DNA from: a virus
Lineage: Duplodnaviria > Caudoviricetes
Strand: one strand, 5' to 3'
Virus record (IMG/VR): IMGVR_UViG_3300007545_000014
Coordinates: 1 to 31,154 of that record
DNA: 31,154 bases
Numbering within the stretch: the stretch's first letter is position 1; every line of letters starts with the position of its first letter. The notes beneath the pieces are model-generated. The model saw only the letters and a program-made list of their open reading frames with translations. It ran no database searches and had not been told where the DNA came from. The position numbers and the translations under genes were made by a program. Below, piece after piece: positions 2,178 through 30,145 of the stretch.

Positions 2178-2771
2178 ATGGCACAACCTAACAAACAACC
2201 ACCTGTTGAGTTCAGGGGGATGACTGGTAACGATACTTTCTCAATCCACACCCCGCAAGGCTCTAAGTGGGCTAAGGTTGGTCAGTCTGTTGGCGGTTAC
2301 CTCATCAGCGGGTACGACACCAAGACGCAGAACCTGCAAATCACTCAAAGCGGAAGACACTACACCATCCCTATGGGGGGTAGCATCATCACGGAGTACA
2401 AACCTCCTTCGGCTACTATTGAGCGTCCTTACACAGTAGACCCCACCGAAATGATTCCTCTTGAAAGACCTATTGCTAAGGATGCTGTGGTTGGGGCTGG
2501 GGCTACAAGCAACTGGGAACAAGAATTTGTTAACTCGCAACATTATAAGTTTAAGCCAGAAGAGGTAGACAAGATTATTGAGAACTCAAAAAAGAGTTCC
2601 TATATGACTGAAGAGCAAAAGAAAAACATTATGTCGCTAGAGGCATATCATAAAAATATTGCAGAAAAGAAAATTCTTCCAGACACAGACTATTATATCC
2701 CTAAGCGTTCTGATGATGGTAGCGTTGATTTTGACATCTTTAAATATAAACCACAAGGAGAGATTCAGTAA
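2178..2771 (+). CDS. Hypothetical protein with an N-terminal PilP/GspC-HR-like beta domain
   Basis: 197-aa ORF with an AT-rich leader. The pattern VEFRG..FSI..SKWAKVGQSVGGYLISGYD...LQI..GR..TIPM resembles PilP/GspC homology-region domains (recognised by eye). Confidence 0.55.
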   Translation: MAQPNKQPPVEFRGMTGNDTFSIHTPQGSKWAKVGQSVGGYLISGYDTKTQNLQITQSGRHYTIPMGGSIITEYKPPSATIERPYTVDPTEMIPLERPIAKDAVVGAGATSNWEQEFVNSQHYKFKPEEVDKIIENSKKSSYMTEEQKKNIMSLEAYHKNIAEKKILPDTDYYIPKRSDDGSVDFDIFKYKPQGEIQ

Positions 2772-2772
2772 T

Positions 2773-3468
2773 ATGGCAAAGAAAGCGGCAAAAAAACCTG
2801 TAGCAACAGACCCTATATATAATTACGGTTGGATTGATAATGAGATTATTGAAATGAACCAAGAAGGGTTCACGGATGCAAACACTCAAAAAAATCTGTT
2901 AAGACATATGCTTGCTGAGGGTGGTCCGAAAATGCGGATGAAAGAAACATACAACGGGACTCCAGAAGAATACTTCACAAAGATGTATGGTGCAAAAACT
3001 ACTGCTGGCAAAAACCTAGGAAACAAGACAGATGCAGATGCTGTTAAGTATTATGGAAGAGGGTTCATTCATCTTACTGGAAGATACAACTACGAGCGTC
3101 TTGCTAAACTAACTGGAATTGACATCGTCAATAACCCAGACCTTGCGGCAGAACCAGCGAACGCTCGTAAGATAATGTACGCTTATCTTAAGGATAGAGC
3201 AAAGACACATAAACTAGACCTCAACAATCCTGAGCATTTGCACAAAGCAATTGCACCAAAAGAGAATTGGCAACAACGACAAGCCCGTGTTCTTCCTATT
3301 TCAGATATGGATTATTCTGTTAATGTACCAGTCCCTCCAAATCCAAATCCACAACCTCCAGCAGACCGCACAGGAAAAACCCCTCTAGGTCAAAGAATGA
3401 CATATGCTCAATTCCTAAAAGAGCAAGGCGGTGGCATAACGCCAGACACAACTCCACCCGCTAGATGA
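2773..3468 (+). CDS. Glycoside hydrolase family 19 (chitinase-like) endolysin or peptidoglycan hydrolase
   Basis: GH19 signature NLGN..DAVKYYGRGFIHLTGRYNY...GIDIVNNPDLAA, with a candidate catalytic Glu in HMLAEGG. The start is likely the ATG at 2773, just after the upstream TAA. Confidence 0.85.
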   Translation: MAKKAAKKPVATDPIYNYGWIDNEIIEMNQEGFTDANTQKNLLRHMLAEGGPKMRMKETYNGTPEEYFTKMYGAKTTAGKNLGNKTDADAVKYYGRGFIHLTGRYNYERLAKLTGIDIVNNPDLAAEPANARKIMYAYLKDRAKTHKLDLNNPEHLHKAIAPKENWQQRQARVLPISDMDYSVNVPVPPNPNPQPPADRTGKTPLGQRMTYAQFLKEQGGGITPDTTPPAR

Positions 3469-19895: not shown

Positions 19896-22800
19896 ATGGC
19901 TGATATATACGCTGATACATCTCCCCAGTACTTTGGGGGCGAAGGTGCTAACTCTGTAACTCGCTACACAGGTGATGAAGACACAGATAAATACCTGAAC
20001 TCTTTGCCAGAGGATAAAAGAGCAGATGCTCTAAAGCGACTTACAGCCCCCCTTACGGGAGAAGAACTTGCTGAAAAGGCTAAAGACCCATATTACAAGA
20101 TGGATAGAAGTCAATTCTCTAGGTATCTTGGGTGGAAGAAAAACGAAGACAAAGGGATTTTAGACGACATTGGATTGCTTAGCGAAGGCGTTGCTCACAT
20201 CTTTGAGCAGATTGCTAAAACCGCTGGTTCTGTGGCAGACCATCCGTTGCAATCTTTGGCAAAACTTGGACCTTCTGGAGTTGAAGCGTTCTATCAAGGT
20301 ACAAGAAATATGTACGGAATGCTTGCTCAATCATCAGACCCTACAAGCAAGTTCTTTAGATTTAAAGCCGCTATAACAGGCGAAGATTCAGACGAGGGAT
20401 ACAGGCAGTATCAAGAAGCAAGAGAGTTTAATTTAGATTCAATTGACTTAGCAGAAGGAAAGAAAACCTTGTTAGTCAACAAAGATTACATCGACCACGA
20501 AATGACTCAGGCAATGAGTTATATTGCTGACCCCTCGTTGTTTATTCCTTTTGCCAAGATTGGTGGACTTGGGCTTCGTGCTATTGGTATGGGAGAGAAA
20601 GCCGCTATGCTTGCCGCCCGTGCAGGGGCTATCCAAAACAGACTAATTGGTGGTGCTCTTAAGTATGGCATTGGAAAACCAATTGAATTAATTGGCGGTG
20701 CAACAAGAGGAGTTATTGATTACGGAATCAACGCAGGTTCATTGGCGGCAGAAACCGTGACTGGTATGTCTGCTAAAGAAATTGCAACAACCGTCCGTAT
20801 GGGTTCGTTAGGAACTAGTGCGGCATCTCTTGCTGGACACTCTGTTCCTATTGTTTCTGACATCTCCAATGCTTATGTTGCTGGAGGTGTTGCACACGGT
20901 GTTGGTCAAGCACTTAGTGCTATTGGTGGTCAAATACAAAGAGGTCCAAGAGGATTCCTTTCTTATGCTAAGGCGGCTCTTGAGGCTGACAAGGCTATTC
21001 TTTCCCCTTCTGCACAGAACTTGCTTAAGGTAATTAATGCCGCTGACCCGCTTCTCTCATTGTCTGCTGACATAACAAAAGGTGCGGCTTACGGTGCTGT
21101 CATTGGTGGCGGGCTTGGCTACGGCAATAACGGTCTTGAAGGTATGTGGCAGGGTGCTGGGGCTGGCATTGCTCTTGGTGGCGTTGGTGGACTTGCTGGT
21201 GGGCTTCTCTCTAGAGCCACAGGTGCTAAGACCATTGAACGAGCAGACATAATGGCTAAGTACGCCATTGAGGGTGCTAAGGAAACAGGGAAACATCATA
21301 CTGCTCAAGCCTATGAATTATTCAGAAAGATTGGAGAGATGACAGGAACTAAGCCGATGATGGATGGCATTGTTGTCGCCTTTGACGGTCTTGCTCCTGA
21401 CTCTAGATTTCAATTCAGAAATGACGCTAACCACACTAAGTTCTTAGATGATAACGGATTTGATAGGAAAACTGGTATACATAAAACAGACCCTACAAAA
21501 CCAAAACAACTTTCTCAGTTTGAGCACATCAATATGGAAGGCGTTGTGATGGAAACAGCCGCTGATGGTCAGGTAACAATGCACATCAACACCACTAAAC
21601 TTTCAAAGGGTGCTAAAAAGGGATTCCGTGCTGGGACAGTTCCACACGAAATGCTTCACTTAATTCTTCGTAAGGCGGTTATGACTCCGCACTTTATTGA
21701 GAACCTCAAGCACGACCTTCTTGGCGTAAGAGACGCAACAGGTAAACTCCTTGAAGGCGGTTCTATCAACCCAGATGAAAGCAAGGCTTTCTTCAGGGAG
21801 TATATGAAGCGTACATACAACAAGGTTGATAAAAGCATTGACCCTACTGGACACGCCGCCGAAGCAAAGCGTTTGTCAGACCTTGCTGATAGGGCTGTTG
21901 ATGAGTACGAAAAGACAGGTCAAGCCACATTGACTGAGGCTACGGTAAATAGCAAAAAGCCTTTACTTGAACACCTTACTGAAGAGTTCGGTGCGTATTA
22001 TTTCCAAGAACTCGTTGGTGCTAAACCACCCGACTTCTTATTCTTTGCTGGTAAGTACGAAGGTCTTCGTGGAGTAATGGACAGAACGGTTAATAGATTT
22101 ATTGACCACTTTGAAAACAAACGCTCTGCCCTTGACCCACGGTTTTCGTTTAAACAAGGCAGGTCATTGTCTGAATCCTTCAGAGACAGTAGCGGGAAGC
22201 GAATCAGGGTAGGCTCTATTGACTATATGATTTCTGACTTCTTGAAGATGACTCAGAATCAAAACAGAACTGGACGAATTGACCTGACCTTGATGTCTGA
22301 TAAAGCCAGAGGAGAACTTATCCTCAGAAAAGGTCTTGACGACCTTGGTAGAGCAAGAGGGGCTAGAGACCCTAGAAAGAAAACAAGTCTCTCTAACGAC
22401 TTGCAACTAGGCAAGGCTGTTCACGCTGAACTTCTAGCCATTGACCCAGCAAGACAAACAGACGGTGCTGGCAATCTAGTTGGTCACTTGTCTGACAAGG
22501 ATGTTGCTGGACTTATTCGTGCTGGGCATATCTCACCTGCTATGGGTCAGAAGATTAAAACTCTTCAGGCTCTTGCTATGAATCCAGACAAATCAGTTTT
22601 TGAGTCTGGATACTGGGGTGCTACGCACACGGTAGAAACTGGACCAAATGTACCAAGAATTACTGGAGACGAAGTTCCTTTCACAAACAGACTTGGTGTT
22701 CTTCTTAGCGTTGACATAAAGGTTGGCAAGAATGGTAAGGTCTCAATGGTTGCACACACCCTTGACCTCAGGGTTAATAGCGAGAGGGCGAAAAATATGT

Positions 22801-25800
22801 GGTCTAATCCTTCGGTAAGAGACCTATGGAACGGAGATGTTATGCTGTTTGAAGCCGACTACATCAAGTATATAACCAATATGGGTAAAGATGTTGCTGG
22901 TGGAAAGGTTGAGTCATCTATCCTGTTGGACAACGGAGACGGCAATGGAGGAAAGAGAAGAGATGTTATGCATCAAGTTGCTGGCGTTCCCCTTGGTGCT
23001 GGCGATGTCTATGTTAATCATCCTATTGGCGAAATCTACTACGATGCTTTGAACGCCTACACGATGCTTTCAATTGGAAGAATGCAGGACATCCGACTAA
23101 CTGGAGAAAAGGTTCTTGGCTTTGACCCCAAGAATGCAATCCCAGACATCGGCAGAAACTTCTCACCTGCTGAGATGACCTACAGGGAAGCCCCTAATGG
23201 TAAGCATTGGGAGCACAAAACTGGCTACAGATTCCATCAGATTCTTGATGGCGAGGTCGTTGCCTACGACAGACGAGGTGAGCGTATTGGTTCATACGCA
23301 ACGCCAGAACAGGCTATGCTTGCTGGTAAGCAGAAACTCCAGAAGCAACAACAGGCTATGCACGAAGTTGCTCAGGATGTTAAGGCGGCTTATGACCGTG
23401 GTGTTCACTTCAGCCCTAGAGAAGAGTACGGAAGACAAAAAGCAACAGAAGAACTTCACGCAAGAGGATTTGCAGGAAAGTTTCGTGCTGAATATGTTGA
23501 GATGCTAAGAAGTCTTACTGAAGAATACAACGCAAAGATTAATAATCCTCAAGTAGACCCTAGATTTCTCAACGGAATCAGAAATAAAATGGAATTGATT
23601 CCAAAGATTTTGGAAAAGATTGATTCTAAGGCAGATTTGTTTTCAGAAGATTCGGTAACCCTAATTCAACACGCTGGAATCCCTGCAAGACTTGACGGTT
23701 CTTTTGGCTCTAATTCTGGCGGTCAGGCTTGGATGAGTATGCGTATTGGTGGCATAGATGCTCATATGAAGGGATGGGATAAGATTTATCCTATGACCTT
23801 CCGTTCTGCTCTTAATGACAGAATTCAGGTGATGCTTAGAGATACACCTAATATGACTCCTCAGCAACTGCGTAAGCGATTGCTTCAGTACGGCTCTAGA
23901 ACTGGAGAGCGTCTATGGGCTGAGGCTGAGGCTGTTGGATTTGTTGATTGGCTTGAGTCTAAGATTCAACCTACATACAGATTAACACGCAGGTACGATG
24001 CGGCTACTGGTGGCATTCTTCCGAGAGGACAGGAACATTCTCCAATTGCTACACCTAAGGGAGAAAATATGTCCGTATTAGACCCAAAGGAAATCACAGA
24101 TTTTCTTAAGAACAATGGCTTGTCGCTTAGGATTGATACTGGTGCTAAAGAACTTGGAGGATTGCAGACTGAGAATTATGTATTTGGTGGAACTAAAGGC
24201 GAGTATACTGAAACGCCTATTAGAATTGAACAGTCTCAATATCATCACGGAGTAAGAGGTCACTACGGACCTGATGTAGTTGTTCACACAAGAACAACAG
24301 TAAGATTCGATTCCGAAGGAAACAAATACCTATACATAGAGGAAATTCAATCTAACAATAGTGAAAGCATTCTTCCTCAAGGTGCTTTGAATAAAGAATC
24401 TCAAAAAATTCTGACAGAACAAAGAACAGATTTAGTTAAAAAACTTCAAGGGCTTCAAGAACTTGTAAACAAATACCCAGACCTTAAGGAAAGAGAACGA
24501 GTTCTTGAAGCCCTTAAAAATGGTGCATTTTATGACGAGGGCTTTGGCACTTCAATTCCGCTGATTAGTTATCTTTCTGACAACCAAAGAACTGGACAAG
24601 GAAGAAACACTACATCTAAAAAGGTTACAGCAAAAGAAAAAGAAGCAAGAAAAATTGCACTTGAAGTTGCTAAATTTATTGAAAGGAATCCAGACCTTAT
24701 TGTAAACCAATATATGCAAATGTTTGCCATAAGTAATGCAGACATTGGTCTTAGAAGAGACCCAACTGGACTTCGTCCGCATACACCTAAAGACGCATCT
24801 CACGAAAATGTAACTCGTACCCACCTGCTTGAGATTCTAAAACAACCTGACATTCTAAAAAACATAGCGGACCAATTTGTAGACCACAACATTAAATATT
24901 ATCAAGACGGATACAGCGATTTCAATAACGCCCAAGATGCTGGATTAAGACTTCAGATGAGCGATGGTAAGGTGTTCTATGCTAATCAGAGATTTAATCC
25001 TGCTTCAATTGGTGGTCCTAGAACAATTGCTGAATTCATAAGCAGAATTTATACTGACACATCTTCTGCTATTGCGGAAACTGCGTGGGAAACCGCCGAT
25101 GTCAAAAGGTCTAACCCAAATCCTGTTCCTAATTATGCAAGCCAAGGAAGACTTCATATTTTTGACACCTATGATGCTTACAGGGCTTATCACGGTTCTT
25201 TGATAGACCCCAATAATACACTTTACGGAGGTCATAGCCGTGCTTTATGGAATGTTCTAGATGCCGTTAACAAAGAGTTTGTAGAAAAAGATTCTTTGAT
25301 TTACAGAACAGCAAAACAGCAAGCGGAAGTGTACGGTGAAATCAAGAAACGAATTCTTGAGAAAAGAAAGAATGAAGGAAACACCAATAAAACCGTTGAT
25401 TTAGTTGAACTTGAAGCCGCATCTCCTCACACACTAAGTCGCAATATAGAAGCAATTGACAGAGAGTTCATTAAGCACGAAGAGGCTATGAAGAACAAAA
25501 AAGCCTACCCTCTTGAAGTCATCAACGAAAGAACCTTGGTTGCTTTAAAATCCCTGATTGTAGAATCTATCAGAAAGGGAATAAACACCCTTGTCCTTAC
25601 TCATCCTGACGATGCTCCTACTGTGTCTCAGATGAAATATATTTCTCGTACAGGATTGTATGGAAAAGCACTTCCTGAAATCTGGGGCGGTTTCCTTGCC
25701 AAATACGGAATCAAGATTCAGAAGTACGGCTCTACAGAAAGATTCCTTAAGGGTCTTGATGTCGCTGGAAACCCTGAAATTAAAAAACTGTTTGAGACTT

Positions 25801-28800
25801 TGTCTAATGCATCTGACGGTTCGTTTGATGCCAATAAACTTGTTCTTGATATGTATGAACAAGGCAAGGCTGGAAAACTTGACGCTAGAAATGTCGAGTA
25901 CATCTCAGGGAGTCTTTCCAGAGCCATTCACGAAGTCACCACTCCAAGACAAGGACAAGAAGATTTTAAGCAACTGGTCAATACGACAACTAAAGCACTA
26001 GATAAAAGAGTAAAAAATGGAGAAATTCCTAAGGAGTTCTATGACGCTTATGTTGAGGCTGTGAATGTTAAAATGGCTGAAAGCAAAGCCTTTGAGGAAC
26101 TGCAAAATAGCATTATGGATGCTCAGGCTCAAGCAAACGGAAAACAAATAATGTCCCGTGATGAAATCATCACCGCTATGGGTCTTGCCAGAGGAAACCA
26201 CATCGTACTTAACGACAAAATAAAAGCCGACTTTATGAGCGGAAAGGCTATGACATCCTATAGCGTTGCTGAAACGGATAGCCGTGGTGGAAGACGCTAC
26301 GACCCTTTTGGTCACGCATTTCAAAGAACATTTATCGGGAAGTATTTTAACGACAACAAGGATACGCTTCCAAAGGGAATGACAGTTGAATTCAAAAACA
26401 CACATCGTTCTGTTGGTGACCCTCAATACGGATTTACTCTTGAGGTTAAACAAGGGTTTCACAAAAGCGGAAAGCCTAACTTCATTGCTAACATACACAT
26501 TAATGTAGACGGAAACAAGGCATCCGTAGAAAGCACAGGCGTTGCTGAGTCAATGCGTGGCAAGAAACTTAATAATGTTTTGCTGTCTGAAGCCGCAGAA
26601 AGACTACGCTCTCAGGGCGTTAAGTATCTTGATGGAGTTATCATTGACCCAGAGAACAGACCTTACCACGCCCGTATGCGTACCATTGGGAACGCAGAGA
26701 GCCTTGGTAATGGCGGTTACTACGATGTAACCAGAAGTACTCTTGATAGGAACGCTTACTACAGCCCAGAGGAGAAAGAACTTAAAGGCAGAATTCAAAG
26801 CAGTTCTTCTTTAACTGAACTTAATTCTTGGCTTAGTGAACTAAGAGGTTCAGTCAAATCTTGGCACGAGGTTGAGATGCCTCAAAGCGTAAAAGACATT
26901 GCTGACAACCTCGATGTATTTACATCAGCCAGCAAAGACGATATGATGATTGCCTTAGAAAAGGCTTCTAGAAGCGACAGCGTTTCAAAGCAAATCTATA
27001 GCGATGTCGTAGAAGGAAGAACAAGTCTGACAGAGGCTACAAAAAAACTTCAGAAGCAAGGAGACTACTACACTTATAATTACGAATTGAACAATATCAG
27101 GAATACAAGAAAACAACTTGCCAAGCGTGTTCAAGAAGTAATGGGCAATAAGCGTAAGGTATCGGACACGGACGCTAGACGCTCCAATACTGGGGCTGAA
27201 AGAGAAAGCAGGGACACAAAATACTACAGCCCTAGCGACTACCAAGGAGGAGATGATTACTACAAACCAAAGAAAAACATCTTTGAATCAAAAGATGAAC
27301 AAGGATTATTAGTTCGCAGAGTTAGCGTTGGAAATGATGAAATTACTGGAAATCCAGACGCTAGGGGTAGCAAAACAAATCCAGACAATGTTGGATGGGA
27401 AGACATTGGTCACTACCCGCAAACAGGAAAAACAAAAGCAGATAATATTTGGGAAGCAAAGAACAGCGGTCTTTGGTATTGGAAAGACAACGAAGGTGTT
27501 AGAATGAAAAACCCAATGTGGGAATTGGACAGACCAGATTTTACGCATAGCGAATGGTTTGATAAATTTAAATATGATGACGATAGACCTAATATCTACG
27601 GCAGATATGAAAAGCCAAAGTACGATGAGAAAGGAAATTTACTTGAGAAAGGTAAACTGTCTATTTCTAGTGATTATAAACAGCCTATCTCTGATATGTC
27701 TGATGCTAATTTCTATAAAGATACTGTTGCTAGTTCACTTGGCGTTCCCGCTGACCACATAGACGCTTATCTGTTTGGTGCTAGTCAAAAAGTTAAGGCT
27801 CAAAGAGGCTATGGTATAAAAGACCAACTTCCTATTCATTTTTCTGTCAACGAAAACGACAAGGGCGGTCAAACCTATAACCAAAAAAGCCTGAAATGGA
27901 AGAAGGGATTCATTGGACGCTATGCGGCTGAGAACCCTGAGATGTCAAAAGAACTTAAACTTACATTTGAAACCGAAAAGGCTAGTGCAAGCAGAGGTAT
28001 GGCTGTGATGGCTGGAAGGGTTGCGGGTAAGAGCACACACAACCACTACCTTCAGATTACTGAGGCTGGTAAAGAGGTTGGTCACATCACTTGGAAGACT
28101 CAGATTGGAGCAAAGGATGGCAGAAAGATTTTCTCAGACCCTAGCGTCAGCGTTGAACCTGCATACCGAGGTAAGAATTACCAGCACCTGCTGTACTCTG
28201 AAGCCGCTGAACGAGCCAGAGCAATGGGTGCTACGGACTTCTTCCAGCGTATTGAAAACGACCTAGGTCTTCCGCTGAAGTCACAGGTCAGGACATTCGG
28301 AGAGAACTACTCTAAACTCCTAGACCAATACACGGGGCAGTATATGCCAGCCACTATGGATAACTTCAATAAACTGAAGTATCCTGAGATGGAGATTCAT
28401 AATACTGAGGCTGACGGCACGGTCAATATCGAGAAGCATAAGGGTCACGAACTCTGGGTGTACGCTTGGAGCAAGATTCAATCTGACAAATGGTACTCCC
28501 TGAACGAAAGGGATATGCTTGTCCTCCGTAAGTCTGAGGATATGCCTTGGTTCAAGAAGGCTATGGCATCGGCTGGAGGCTTTGTCAGGTACGCCACCGC
28601 TGAGGATTTAAATGACCTCAGAGGGCTTAGGGCAATCAGCCACGCTCCTGATACCCTTACGGGTACAGACATCACCACAGCCGAAGGCAGGGTGGTTGCT
28701 GAGGGTGCTGGAGGTCTTCCTTACCCTATGCTTCAGGCTGAAAGAGGAAGCAATGCGGCTTGGGCATCGCAAGGTGAAGGGTTTGTCAACCTAACTAACA

Positions 28801-29840
28801 ACGCTGTACAGGCAAACAAAGATGCGGGCAAAGGTGTTACAGCAATTATGCCTCTGACCTTCACATCTTACGAGAAGGCTAGAGCGTCAGTTCAAGGCTC
28901 TGAGTTCTACTACAATGTTTTTGACATCTTTAAGCGTGGTAAGATTGTCTCCGAAAAAGACCTTCGCATTGCGATGGCTGAAGCCGTTGAAAAAGTTACC
29001 ACGCATAAGGACAAAAAAACTGGGGAAGTTGTAATTGAGAACAAGCAGACTGATGCACTCAGGAAGATTGTTAAGGACAACAAGATGAATTATGATGAGT
29101 TGATTGCCAGCGTGATGCTTACCCTTGAAGACAGTAGCATTCAGAACTTTGGCACAAGAGCACCTATGATAGACGACTTTATGGGTGCTGTGTGGGACAG
29201 AGTTATGAAAGGTCTTAGCGATAAGAAGAAGCAGGAAGTTATGCGGTTCTTCCCTGAATGGGATGGCTCTAAAACGGCAGGAGCGTTCACGCTTGCTAAC
29301 CTCAAGAGCACAATGGGCAACACGCTTACAGATAGCCTTACAAAAGGACTTAAGTCTGGAGATGTCTACGGCATTATAAAATTCAATGACTTTGTAGAAT
29401 CTATGGACTCTGGTCACAGGTCTTATAACACAGGTATTGTTCAAAAGAACGGGCAGAAGCCTGAGATTCTGTTGCTCAAGAGACCTATCAATGTCCTAGA
29501 CCTGCACGAAACATCTATCTCTGCTAACTCTGGTGAGCGTAAACTTTCAGACCTTCCAAGTAATGTGCAGACAAACCTGCTTGGTATGAACAGCAACCCT
29601 TACGGTGCAACCAGAACCAAGGATGTTGGTCAGGTAGATTATAGGGATATGAACGCTAATTACAGCGTAAAAGAAAATTTTGCGGAGAAAGTCGCACCTA
29701 ATGGAAAGGTATTACAGGCTATCAACGGATACATCATTATGATTCAAGGAGACAAGTTCAAGGTCTATAACTCCCAGAAAGTTCAAGTCGGCATCTACGC
29801 TTCTGAACAAGAAGCCAAAAAACGAGCATTGAGGAACTGA
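19896..29840 (+). CDS. Giant polyvalent internal virion protein (3314 aa): Gly-rich hydrophobic region, zincin metallopeptidase, IEEIQS domain, two GNAT domains and further modules
   Basis: Single open frame. Contains hydrophobic GAVIGGGLG..GAGIALGGVGGLAGGLL, HEMLH (21645-21659) with downstream EEFGA (21981), YLYIEEIQS (about 24330-24353), and GNAT motif A-like V.E.MRGK.L...LLSEAAER and VEPAYRGK.Y..LLYSEAAER. Confidence 0.85.
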   Translation: MADIYADTSPQYFGGEGANSVTRYTGDEDTDKYLNSLPEDKRADALKRLTAPLTGEELAEKAKDPYYKMDRSQFSRYLGWKKNEDKGILDDIGLLSEGVAHIFEQIAKTAGSVADHPLQSLAKLGPSGVEAFYQGTRNMYGMLAQSSDPTSKFFRFKAAITGEDSDEGYRQYQEAREFNLDSIDLAEGKKTLLVNKDYIDHEMTQAMSYIADPSLFIPFAKIGGLGLRAIGMGEKAAMLAARAGAIQNRLIGGALKYGIGKPIELIGGATRGVIDYGINAGSLAAETVTGMSAKEIATTVRMGSLGTSAASLAGHSVPIVSDISNAYVAGGVAHGVGQALSAIGGQIQRGPRGFLSYAKAALEADKAILSPSAQNLLKVINAADPLLSLSADITKGAAYGAVIGGGLGYGNNGLEGMWQGAGAGIALGGVGGLAGGLLSRATGAKTIERADIMAKYAIEGAKETGKHHTAQAYELFRKIGEMTGTKPMMDGIVVAFDGLAPDSRFQFRNDANHTKFLDDNGFDRKTGIHKTDPTKPKQLSQFEHINMEGVVMETAADGQVTMHINTTKLSKGAKKGFRAGTVPHEMLHLILRKAVMTPHFIENLKHDLLGVRDATGKLLEGGSINPDESKAFFREYMKRTYNKVDKSIDPTGHAAEAKRLSDLADRAVDEYEKTGQATLTEATVNSKKPLLEHLTEEFGAYYFQELVGAKPPDFLFFAGKYEGLRGVMDRTVNRFIDHFENKRSALDPRFSFKQGRSLSESFRDSSGKRIRVGSIDYMISDFLKMTQNQNRTGRIDLTLMSDKARGELILRKGLDDLGRARGARDPRKKTSLSNDLQLGKAVHAELLAIDPARQTDGAGNLVGHLSDKDVAGLIRAGHISPAMGQKIKTLQALAMNPDKSVFESGYWGATHTVETGPNVPRITGDEVPFTNRLGVLLSVDIKVGKNGKVSMVAHTLDLRVNSERAKNMWSNPSVRDLWNGDVMLFEADYIKYITNMGKDVAGGKVESSILLDNGDGNGGKRRDVMHQVAGVPLGAGDVYVNHPIGEIYYDALNAYTMLSIGRMQDIRLTGEKVLGFDPKNAIPDIGRNFSPAEMTYREAPNGKHWEHKTGYRFHQILDGEVVAYDRRGERIGSYATPEQAMLAGKQKLQKQQQAMHEVAQDVKAAYDRGVHFSPREEYGRQKATEELHARGFAGKFRAEYVEMLRSLTEEYNAKINNPQVDPRFLNGIRNKMELIPKILEKIDSKADLFSEDSVTLIQHAGIPARLDGSFGSNSGGQAWMSMRIGGIDAHMKGWDKIYPMTFRSALNDRIQVMLRDTPNMTPQQLRKRLLQYGSRTGERLWAEAEAVGFVDWLESKIQPTYRLTRRYDAATGGILPRGQEHSPIATPKGENMSVLDPKEITDFLKNNGLSLRIDTGAKELGGLQTENYVFGGTKGEYTETPIRIEQSQYHHGVRGHYGPDVVVHTRTTVRFDSEGNKYLYIEEIQSNNSESILPQGALNKESQKILTEQRTDLVKKLQGLQELVNKYPDLKERERVLEALKNGAFYDEGFGTSIPLISYLSDNQRTGQGRNTTSKKVTAKEKEARKIALEVAKFIERNPDLIVNQYMQMFAISNADIGLRRDPTGLRPHTPKDASHENVTRTHLLEILKQPDILKNIADQFVDHNIKYYQDGYSDFNNAQDAGLRLQMSDGKVFYANQRFNPASIGGPRTIAEFISRIYTDTSSAIAETAWETADVKRSNPNPVPNYASQGRLHIFDTYDAYRAYHGSLIDPNNTLYGGHSRALWNVLDAVNKEFVEKDSLIYRTAKQQAEVYGEIKKRILEKRKNEGNTNKTVDLVELEAASPHTLSRNIEAIDREFIKHEEAMKNKKAYPLEVINERTLVALKSLIVESIRKGINTLVLTHPDDAPTVSQMKYISRTGLYGKALPEIWGGFLAKYGIKIQKYGSTERFLKGLDVAGNPEIKKLFETLSNASDGSFDANKLVLDMYEQGKAGKLDARNVEYISGSLSRAIHEVTTPRQGQEDFKQLVNTTTKALDKRVKNGEIPKEFYDAYVEAVNVKMAESKAFEELQNSIMDAQAQANGKQIMSRDEIITAMGLARGNHIVLNDKIKADFMSGKAMTSYSVAETDSRGGRRYDPFGHAFQRTFIGKYFNDNKDTLPKGMTVEFKNTHRSVGDPQYGFTLEVKQGFHKSGKPNFIANIHINVDGNKASVESTGVAESMRGKKLNNVLLSEAAERLRSQGVKYLDGVIIDPENRPYHARMRTIGNAESLGNGGYYDVTRSTLDRNAYYSPEEKELKGRIQSSSSLTELNSWLSELRGSVKSWHEVEMPQSVKDIADNLDVFTSASKDDMMIALEKASRSDSVSKQIYSDVVEGRTSLTEATKKLQKQGDYYTYNYELNNIRNTRKQLAKRVQEVMGNKRKVSDTDARRSNTGAERESRDTKYYSPSDYQGGDDYYKPKKNIFESKDEQGLLVRRVSVGNDEITGNPDARGSKTNPDNVGWEDIGHYPQTGKTKADNIWEAKNSGLWYWKDNEGVRMKNPMWELDRPDFTHSEWFDKFKYDDDRPNIYGRYEKPKYDEKGNLLEKGKLSISSDYKQPISDMSDANFYKDTVASSLGVPADHIDAYLFGASQKVKAQRGYGIKDQLPIHFSVNENDKGGQTYNQKSLKWKKGFIGRYAAENPEMSKELKLTFETEKASASRGMAVMAGRVAGKSTHNHYLQITEAGKEVGHITWKTQIGAKDGRKIFSDPSVSVEPAYRGKNYQHLLYSEAAERARAMGATDFFQRIENDLGLPLKSQVRTFGENYSKLLDQYTGQYMPATMDNFNKLKYPEMEIHNTEADGTVNIEKHKGHELWVYAWSKIQSDKWYSLNERDMLVLRKSEDMPWFKKAMASAGGFVRYATAEDLNDLRGLRAISHAPDTLTGTDITTAEGRVVAEGAGGLPYPMLQAERGSNAAWASQGEGFVNLTNNAVQANKDAGKGVTAIMPLTFTSYEKARASVQGSEFYYNVFDIFKRGKIVSEKDLRIAMAEAVEKVTTHKDKKTGEVVIENKQTDALRKIVKDNKMNYDELIASVMLTLEDSSIQNFGTRAPMIDDFMGAVWDRVMKGLSDKKKQEVMRFFPEWDGSKTAGAFTLANLKSTMGNTLTDSLTKGLKSGDVYGIIKFNDFVESMDSGHRSYNTGIVQKNGQKPEILLLKRPINVLDLHETSISANSGERKLSDLPSNVQTNLLGMNSNPYGATRTKDVGQVDYRDMNANYSVKENFAEKVAPNGKVLQAINGYIIMIQGDKFKVYNSQKVQVGIYASEQEAKKRALRN

Positions 29841-29842
29841 CG

Positions 29843-30145
29843 ATGAACGACAACCACGACTATGAAGTCCTTATTCAAGAACTCAAACGAGGGGGATGGA
29901 TTATGGCTATCTTCGGTGCTCTTGGTGCTTTCACTAGCCTTGTCCTCAGAAATGAAAAATACACTTTCTTTATATGGTTCAGAAAGATAGCGGCAGGTGC
30001 TGTGGTAGGCGTAATTACAAGCCTATCCTTGTACTCTGTGGACATAGAGCCTATTTATAAAAGCGTTCTATGTTCTATCGCTGGTTCTATTGCCCCTGAG
30101 TTGTTTGACTGGGTCAGAACCAAGGCTTTAGAAAAACTCAAATGA
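29843..30145 (+). CDS. Putative holin
   Basis: 100 aa with three hydrophobic segments (GWIMAIFGALGAFTSLVL; IAAGAVVGVITSLSL; SVLCSIAGSIA) and a basic C-terminus, after the virion genes. Confidence 0.7.
   Translation: MNDNHDYEVLIQELKRGGWIMAIFGALGAFTSLVLRNEKYTFFIWFRKIAAGAVVGVITSLSLYSVDIEPIYKSVLCSIAGSIAPELFDWVRTKALEKLK

Follow-up and report, generated by a model that had tools for sequence, protein, structure and literature searches.

The giant protein encoded by this phage DNA carries a short tag at the start of each of its eight C-terminal modules, and the chain is probably cut just before the aromatic residue of each tag by a zincin-type protease domain predicted within the same protein. Our case for this reading is a comparative one, drawn from related sequences: the variable second residue of the tag (X) changes in step throughout a protein and also tracks a residue in the zinc protease predicted within that protein, so that self-cutting at the tag is likely.

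The window, i.e., the whole stretch of DNA that was analysed (31,154 nt), is a virus record of 31 kb, and related contigs reach up to about 43 kb. A single run of genes on the + strand includes an endolysin-like gene, a terminase, a scaffold, an SU10-type major capsid gene, a head-closure gene, three ORFs of 299, 1132 and 3314 aa, and a holin. Matches to virion genes beside the giant ORF include the SU10-type major capsid (E 5e-49), a weak one for the terminase (E 0.001), and scaffold, head closure and holin. The giant ORF is the largest of the run and the final one ahead of the holin, which is the usual place of podovirus ejection proteins, and from this position in the gene order we infer that the 3314-aa protein is a virion component that enters the host along with the DNA. 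The moderately hydrophobic segments in its N-terminal region are possibly a membrane or channel part. The gene is spanned over all 30 bins, without joints, by contigs from four of four metagenome runs, though these runs may be the source of the window; the 24 runs that contain the DNA are labelled marine metagenome, and may likewise be its source. A tblastn search with the peptidase core against 50,697 phage records gave no match, hence no cultured relative among them. The contig of one relative (L099) has been assigned by binning to the MAG of an uncultured Acidimicrobiaceae member; this is the single such match, is not taken as a host assignment, and may represent a binned virus, not a prophage. 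Upstream of the structural module, seven tRNA genes are clustered at 978–1720 (Thr, Arg, Gln, Lys, Gly, Ile-type with a TAT anticodon, and Ser), and the endolysin, which is glycoside hydrolase 19-like, is found at 2659–3468, upstream of the terminase and distant from the holin (29843–30145).

Table 1. Features of the giant gene and its product. Coordinates refer to the window; for the tags, length and predicted mass are those of the module that the tag opens.
Feature	Coordinates	Strand	Length (aa)	Mass (kDa)	Remarks
Gene for polyvalent (likely ejection) protein	19896..29840	+	3314		No Cys
Conserved N-terminal region, aa 1-485	19896..21350	+			Gly-rich, moderately hydrophobic segments at aa 209-444
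Predicted zincin metallopeptidase, aa 486-794	21351..22277	+			Lethal-factor/PPEP-like fold (AF2; VIA Z 5.1-7.8)
E548-G549	21537..21542	+			Start of predicted edge strand; 548 covaries with second residue of tag
HEMLH, aa 584-588	21645..21659	+			Zinc-binding motif
E696-E697	21981..21986	+			In invariant EEFGAYY helix; predicted third zinc ligand
Putative WYL-like (Sm-fold) domain, aa 832-1088	22389..23159	+			Ends directly before tag 1; AF2 pLDDT 89.7 when folded alone
Tag 1, FSPAE	23160..23174	+	83	9.5	Module 1, aa 1089-1171; small beta-sheet + helix; paralogue of module 8
Tag 2, FSPRE	23409..23423	+	950	107	Module 2, aa 1172-2121; two conserved blocks flank variable insert
Tag 3, YSVAE	26259..26273	+	167	18.7	Module 3, aa 2122-2288; GNAT
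Tag 4, YSPEE	26760..26774	+	155	17.8	Module 4, aa 2289-2443; mobile
Tag 5, YSPSD	27225..27239	+	205	23.6	Module 5, aa 2444-2648; mobile; invariant GH and GRxExP
Tag 6, FSVNE	27840..27854	+	218	24.8	Module 6, aa 2649-2866; GNAT, paralogue of module 3
Tag 7, YSLNE	28494..28508	+	389	42.9	Module 7, aa 2867-3255; mobile
Tag 8, YSVKE	29661..29675	+	59	6.7	Module 8, aa 3256-3314; conserved C-terminal domain

In the window's protein the tag takes the form [FY]S[PVL]x[ED]. A first-pass annotation had listed eight copies and had described residues 1–1088 as free of the motif; all eight are found at the residue and nucleotide positions it gave, the stretch before them contains zero copies, and the module lengths agree (Table 1). 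It had also estimated less than one match by chance, which is in line with a mean of 0.33 in shuffled sequence, where eight copies were reached in 0 of 5000 shuffles. Every [FY]S[PVL] in the protein (8/8) continues as x[ED]. The post hoc choice of the motif was corrected for by freely choosing the best pattern of the same form in the protein and in each of 300 shuffles: the tag motif is the top scorer in the protein among all patterns of this form, and its score of 8.57 exceeds the best of every shuffle (maximum 8.17). Both pairs of paralogous modules had been said to start their similarity exactly at the motif. Modules 3 and 6 do so, aligning from their first residues (BLAST E 4e-9; HHalign 100%), whereas for modules 1 and 8, which are indeed paralogous (HHalign 99.2%), the statement was slightly overstated, since their alignment begins at residues 3–4, or at 11–12 by BLAST. 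Because of these two paralogous pairs, the eight tag copies are not eight independent events. The HEMLH and EE motifs lie upstream of all tags, as had been noted. At tag 1, the one tag seen against a predicted structure, pLDDT falls below 50 at aa 1091–1093 (AF2).

Relatives were gathered in four rounds (24 proteins, 55 loci, 38 loci and 92 proteins). The motif is conserved in these homologues, but the Ser at its second position is lineage-specific, not fixed as the first definition had it: the family-wide form is aromatic-X-P-x-[ED], where X is S, Q, M or K depending on the protein. Over 320 sites, picked by pattern, the conserved part is aromatic-X-P/V-x-E/D, and the preceding residues belong to the upstream module and vary.

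The relatives also bear out the proposals that the motifs are true module borders and that the modules can be shuffled, as modules are gained, lost and swapped motif-to-motif. In the eleven closest relatives (P0003–P0012 and P0015), modules 4 and 5 and extra GNATs come and go exactly tag-to-tag: P0015 lacks module 5 only, P0009 lacks module 4 only, P0007 lacks both, and P0003 has one additional GNAT module. For pairs of proteins with different spellings of the tag (68 proteins, local alignments), 1896 of 5369 alignments start near a tag (−5 to +20) compared with 324–374 for random positions, and 1076 of 4485 end near a tag compared with 328–353. Library domains, found independently of the tags, fall between successive tags. 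Specifically, an ART-PolyVal domain (E 1.8e-18) occupies 2397–2557 in P0033, between tags at 2381 and 2582, and PHROG 2579 occupies 2325–2467 in P0014, with flanking tags at 2331–2470. The counter-case is a tag-like MKLQD within the ART domain of P0024, which is probably a chance occurrence. Tags are decayed at some junctions of close relatives (YAI, YAL or MAV), hardly any downstream tags exist in some members (P0017, L050), and the last module has no preceding tag in 38 of 64 members, 23 of which have a Pro-rich linker instead. The decay of tags and these 38 members count against a strict requirement for the tag. The Pro-rich linker lies within the last 100 aa of the giant ORF, for example in L041, L056, L043 and L015.

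The spelling of the tag is a property of the individual protein. Tag 1 stands directly after the conserved core, following an invariant Asn, and its X is S, T, Q, M, K, H or R by protein. In 71 proteins the X of tag 1 predicts the X found downstream, with observed/expected counts of 82/5.1 for Q, 68/9.1 for S, 46/2.6 for M and 52/7.6 for K, and the first junction agrees with the downstream spelling in 37 of the 40 proteins (of 87) where both could be called. The Q and M spellings partly mix (14/4.6 and 11/2.7), and S-type proteins also use T. At least 24 changes of X fall on a tree of the core, for which 87 representatives with less than 85% identity were taken from the 134 proteins that aligned over every marker column. 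Tags are enriched downstream of the first tag (238 observed against 35.8 expected), with 24 against 19.7 upstream of it and 11 against 12.8 in the other ORFs of the same loci.

When a module is found in hosts of different spelling, its tag mostly follows the host. Among 590 pairs of homologous modules, which are not independent of each other and from which Q–M pairs are excluded, 413 match the spelling of their host, 26 have the same X and 151 do neither; for the Q–M pairs (n = 231) the numbers are 135, 73 and 23. Module 5 of the window is 56% identical to its counterparts in Q- and K-type hosts, whose cores are only 30–32% identical to that of the window, and it starts with YSPSD, YQPSE, FKPVQ or FMPDE before a common [QE]G[GS]DDY. 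In one fragment (P0113) module 5 is 81% identical to that of the window over half its length and has a K-type end tag where the window has an S-type one, which reads as a recent transfer with retagging. The concerted spelling, the retagging and an enrichment confined to the region downstream of the core therefore argue that a protein-specific factor must read all of a protein's own tags.

A candidate for this factor is the predicted peptidase. The AF2 model of aa 486–1180 (pLDDT 78.5) has two domains, the first of which shows the elements of a zincin fold, with strands at aa 504–508, 549–553 and 560–565 and with helices carrying HEMLH and EE. HExxH is intact in 87 of 87 representatives, which were chosen for an aligned HE, and H584, E585, H588, E696 and E697 are invariant in the alignments. 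In structural comparison with VIA, the catalytic domain of lethal factor (Z 6.1, rmsd 4.1, 135 aligned) and PPEP-2 (Z 5.4, rmsd 3.9, 134 aligned) are matched. All zincin fold matches have Z below 8, and the best of them come from Certhrax, edema factor and lethal factor, in each case from the N-terminal domain, which is regarded as catalytically dead. The protease PprI is matched weakly (Z 4.7), and Foldseek against the PDB returned nothing at E ≤ 0.001 for this model or for that of aa 832–1088.

In the model, residues 548–549 stand at the start of a sheet strand beside the HExxH helix. A first covariation scan (1001 columns, ten clades) was not significant by permutation (p 0.37–0.49), though residue 548, next to the invariant G549, was Glu in all four K clades. 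This column was chosen post hoc, and the hypothesis was then fixed before the later-found set of 92 proteins was analysed. Among 64 of these proteins, which partly share clades with the discovery set, Asp or Glu is found at 548 in 17 of 19 with K tags and in 3 of 45 with other tags. For ten independent pairs on the tree the tally is 6.6 in the same direction, 0 opposite and 3.4 tied (median p ~0.016). In a scan of 15,125 column-by-class tests column 548 came out on top, but a score like its own (≥0.65) was also reached by about 7 of 200 null traits, and the same scan yielded no determinant column for S, Q or M, nor for tag positions 1 or 3. If the spelling is taken from downstream tags only (40 of 87 proteins callable), residue 548 is acidic in 9 of 9 K-type proteins and in 0 of 19 of the Q/M type. 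Not every protein conforms: that of the window combines Ser tags with E548, and in P0054 and L066 the tags are of the K type while residue 548 is Ala. The sites thus appear to be coevolving with the protease domain in cis, the covariation being clear only for Lys versus other spellings. Together with the concerted spelling, this means that the tag behaves as a recognition site for the HExxH domain of the same chain would be expected to, a role the first-pass annotation had proposed.

The position of residue 548 also suggests where the cut would fall. The edge strand of thermolysin begins at Asn112, which contacts the backbone of P1′ and P2′, and S1′ is filled by bulky hydrophobic residues (accessible text of PMC12316308 and PMC9404851). 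Judged by topology, residue 548 may lie near S2′ as the counterpart of Asn112. If so, X would be P2′ and the aromatic residue P1′, which places the cut on the module border that was found independently. A complex prediction for the peptidase (aa 486–800) with Zn and a 36-aa peptide containing tag 5 had a score of 0.00, which speaks neither for nor against this arrangement.

Between the peptidase and tag 1 lies a domain whose model suggests a WYL-like fold. Among 48,161 chains compared with VIA, the top nine matches are WYL proteins with Z scores of 7.0–8.2, followed by Hfq/Sm proteins at 6.3 or less, though a Z of about 8 is not decisive; the best match is BrxR (Z 8.2, rmsd 3.5, 94 aligned). 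The likeness to WYL regulators such as BrxR, PafBC, CapW and DriD lies in this predicted fold, whereas aa 832–1088 differ from them in having large insertions, no HTH and no Pfam WYL match: no Pfam family, WYL (PF13280) included, reaches E ≤ 0.05 in window positions 22296–23159. The domain with this predicted fold is conserved across the family. It is speculative, on the basis of the modelled fold, that this domain might be a nucleic-acid-sensing trigger.

These observations suggest the following scheme. The giant protein would be packaged whole in the virion and delivered as one chain, its Gly-rich N-terminal part helping it to cross the envelope. The zincin would then cut before the aromatic residue of each tag and so free eight modules from the N-terminal body, namely two GNATs, two small paralogous domains and four others. 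Cutting at or after ejection is somewhat more likely than cutting inside the capsid, because the cargo must stay linked for packaging. The products would start with F or Y, which are bacterial N-degron residues, so they may be short-lived.

Alternatively, the tag could dock uncut in the zincin cleft or on the WYL-like domain and serve as a handle for threading, packaging or latency, with modules fed one by one through the tail. Such docking would account equally well for the concerted spelling and for the covariation with residue 548, and it suits the catalytically dead domains among the best fold matches. There is also a precedent in the N4 virion RNA polymerase, which carries a zincin-like domain and is packaged unprocessed (accessible text of PMC5512222). 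However, the five invariant residues of the putative zinc site point to catalysis, and the aromatic residue that stands first, right at the module border, is what one would expect of a P1′ site, and for these reasons we regard docking without cleavage as unlikely.

The tag might also be a recombination joint or structural cap, where short DNA identity promotes in-frame swaps and spellings are inherited by local copying. Crossovers do fall at or inside the tag, spellings follow clades, and synonymous identity is slightly raised at tag positions 1 and 2 (109/73.7 and 291/247). However, the acidic position has no synonymous excess (240/246), and the window's eight tag Ser codons (five AGC and one each of TCA, TCT and TCC) draw on both Ser codon families in one gene. 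This codon pattern points to selection on the tag peptide, not on a copied DNA element. Recent copying of tags at the DNA level was rejected as the main cause on the same mixed codons and on a synonymous identity between tag copies that is only slightly above codon usage. A joint would leave the covariation with a residue 540 aa upstream unexplained, and it can coexist with cleavage but not replace it; as the sole role of the tag it is quite improbable.

It is very unlikely that another protease, from the host or a phage maturation protease encoded off the contig, cuts the tags while the HExxH domain targets peptidoglycan (a role suggested for the corresponding domains of phi24B and crAss-like phages in the accessible accounts) or a host protein, for although the window has only 31 kb of the ~43 kb seen in related contigs, tags are not enriched in the other ORFs, structural genes included, and their spelling varies with a residue of the HExxH domain of the same protein.

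Self-cutting of this kind would work like the picornavirus 3C-type polyproteins, in which a cis-encoded protease cuts repeated motifs. The likeness consists of one ORF, an embedded protease and short repeated sites at domain borders; in contrast, the present case is an unrelated dsDNA phage with a metalloprotease, horizontally swapped cargo, and a delivered virion protein instead of a translation strategy.

The closer comparison is with phage polyvalent proteins, to which the 3314-aa protein belongs by several testable marks: disparate activities in one chain (a zincin-like domain and two GNATs, with ART-PolyVal in the relative P0033), a gene among the virion genes of a terminase-packaged phage, and a domain architecture that varies among relatives. 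Like the proteins of Iyer et al., 2017 (PMC5512222), it is giant and multidomain, is encoded with a terminase/capsid module and combines an HExxH + Glu peptidase with GNATs, and its relatives carry ART-PolyVal and ParB-like domains. None of the LPD Pfam families matches the 3314-aa protein. The accessible text of that paper describes the zincin-like MPTase as a hub of polyvalent proteins and proposes autoproteolytic domain release; unlike the present family, it contains no cleavage sites, junction motif, lineage spelling, covarying residue or WYL-like neighbour of the peptidase. DdrB of phage P1, the N4 virion RNA polymerase (PMC13434306), gp47 of phi24B and gp65/gp66 of crAss-like phages are likewise zincin-bearing virion proteins, and the accessible accounts of them describe no repeated tag or cut motif; DdrB undergoes processing ahead of packaging (accessible text of PMC5512222). 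In the literature on phage polyprotein processing, junction motifs, zincin and WYL we found no such tags described, with subscription papers little covered and with online alignments of PMC5512222 that may show the motif at the edges of domains. What is added here is the spelling matrix, the observation that transferred modules are retagged, a residue that is a candidate for setting specificity, and the WYL-like neighbour domain.

To the proposal of 2017, made without sites, that zincins cut polyvalent proteins, the family thus supplies predicted scissile bonds and a candidate for specificity. Its S, Q, M and K spellings are natural cognate and non-cognate pairs, and self-cutting can be tested with a recombinant fragment of ~700 residues, without a cultured phage. 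Even where the cargo has no library annotation, the tags already mark its domain borders objectively. If the tags are cut as proposed, this would explain how many anti-host activities pass a narrow podophage tail in one chain and how cargo is shuffled. A fuller picture, which we consider less likely than not, is that a widespread family of aquatic podophages carries its early effectors in a self-disassembling cassette: a WYL-like nucleic-acid sensor would activate the embedded zinc protease, whose five-residue recognition code would be private and would coevolve with the protease pocket like a key with its lock, and modules acquired from other phages would be retagged to the spelling of the new host protein. 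On that picture, the family would amount to a natural collection of sequence-specific proteases orthogonal to one another, and giant phage proteins could be parsed into their effectors by a rule.

As to the cargo itself, the GNAT call is based on Pfam PF00583 (24.3 bits, cut-off 20.7), and by analogy with the family as treated in the accessible text of PMC5512222 the two GNATs likely acetylate host proteins. ESM Atlas gave no named family for module 2 and no usable match for module 7, the modules other than the GNATs had no informative match in NCBIfam or PHROGs, and profile searches of PDB sequences gave nothing useful. Outside the giant proteins, a search for stand-alone homologues of module 5 returned three matches, all on ~1-kb contigs and read as fragments of the same polyprotein. 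The conserved blocks of module 2 lie at window positions 23748–24395 and 25488–26258 and contain an invariant H, GH, HxRxTxR, EExQ and THPDD; from these residues the module looks enzymatic. The idea that it is a split GNAT found no support (HHalign probability ≤1.3%), and the module is present twice in P0013, P0014 and L089. The small beta-sheet + helix domain occurs at 23160–23408, after the core, and again at 29661–29837, at the C-terminus. Of 158 family proteins, 113 possess the C-terminal copy, and the domain may serve as a handle for packaging or anchoring. Distant giants of 4000–6000 aa (L057, L060, L096, L098 and P0099–P0111) have the core in common, and several of them have repeated tags of their own, e.g., FSPAD or YSVYD, while P0025 repeats NMMVG.
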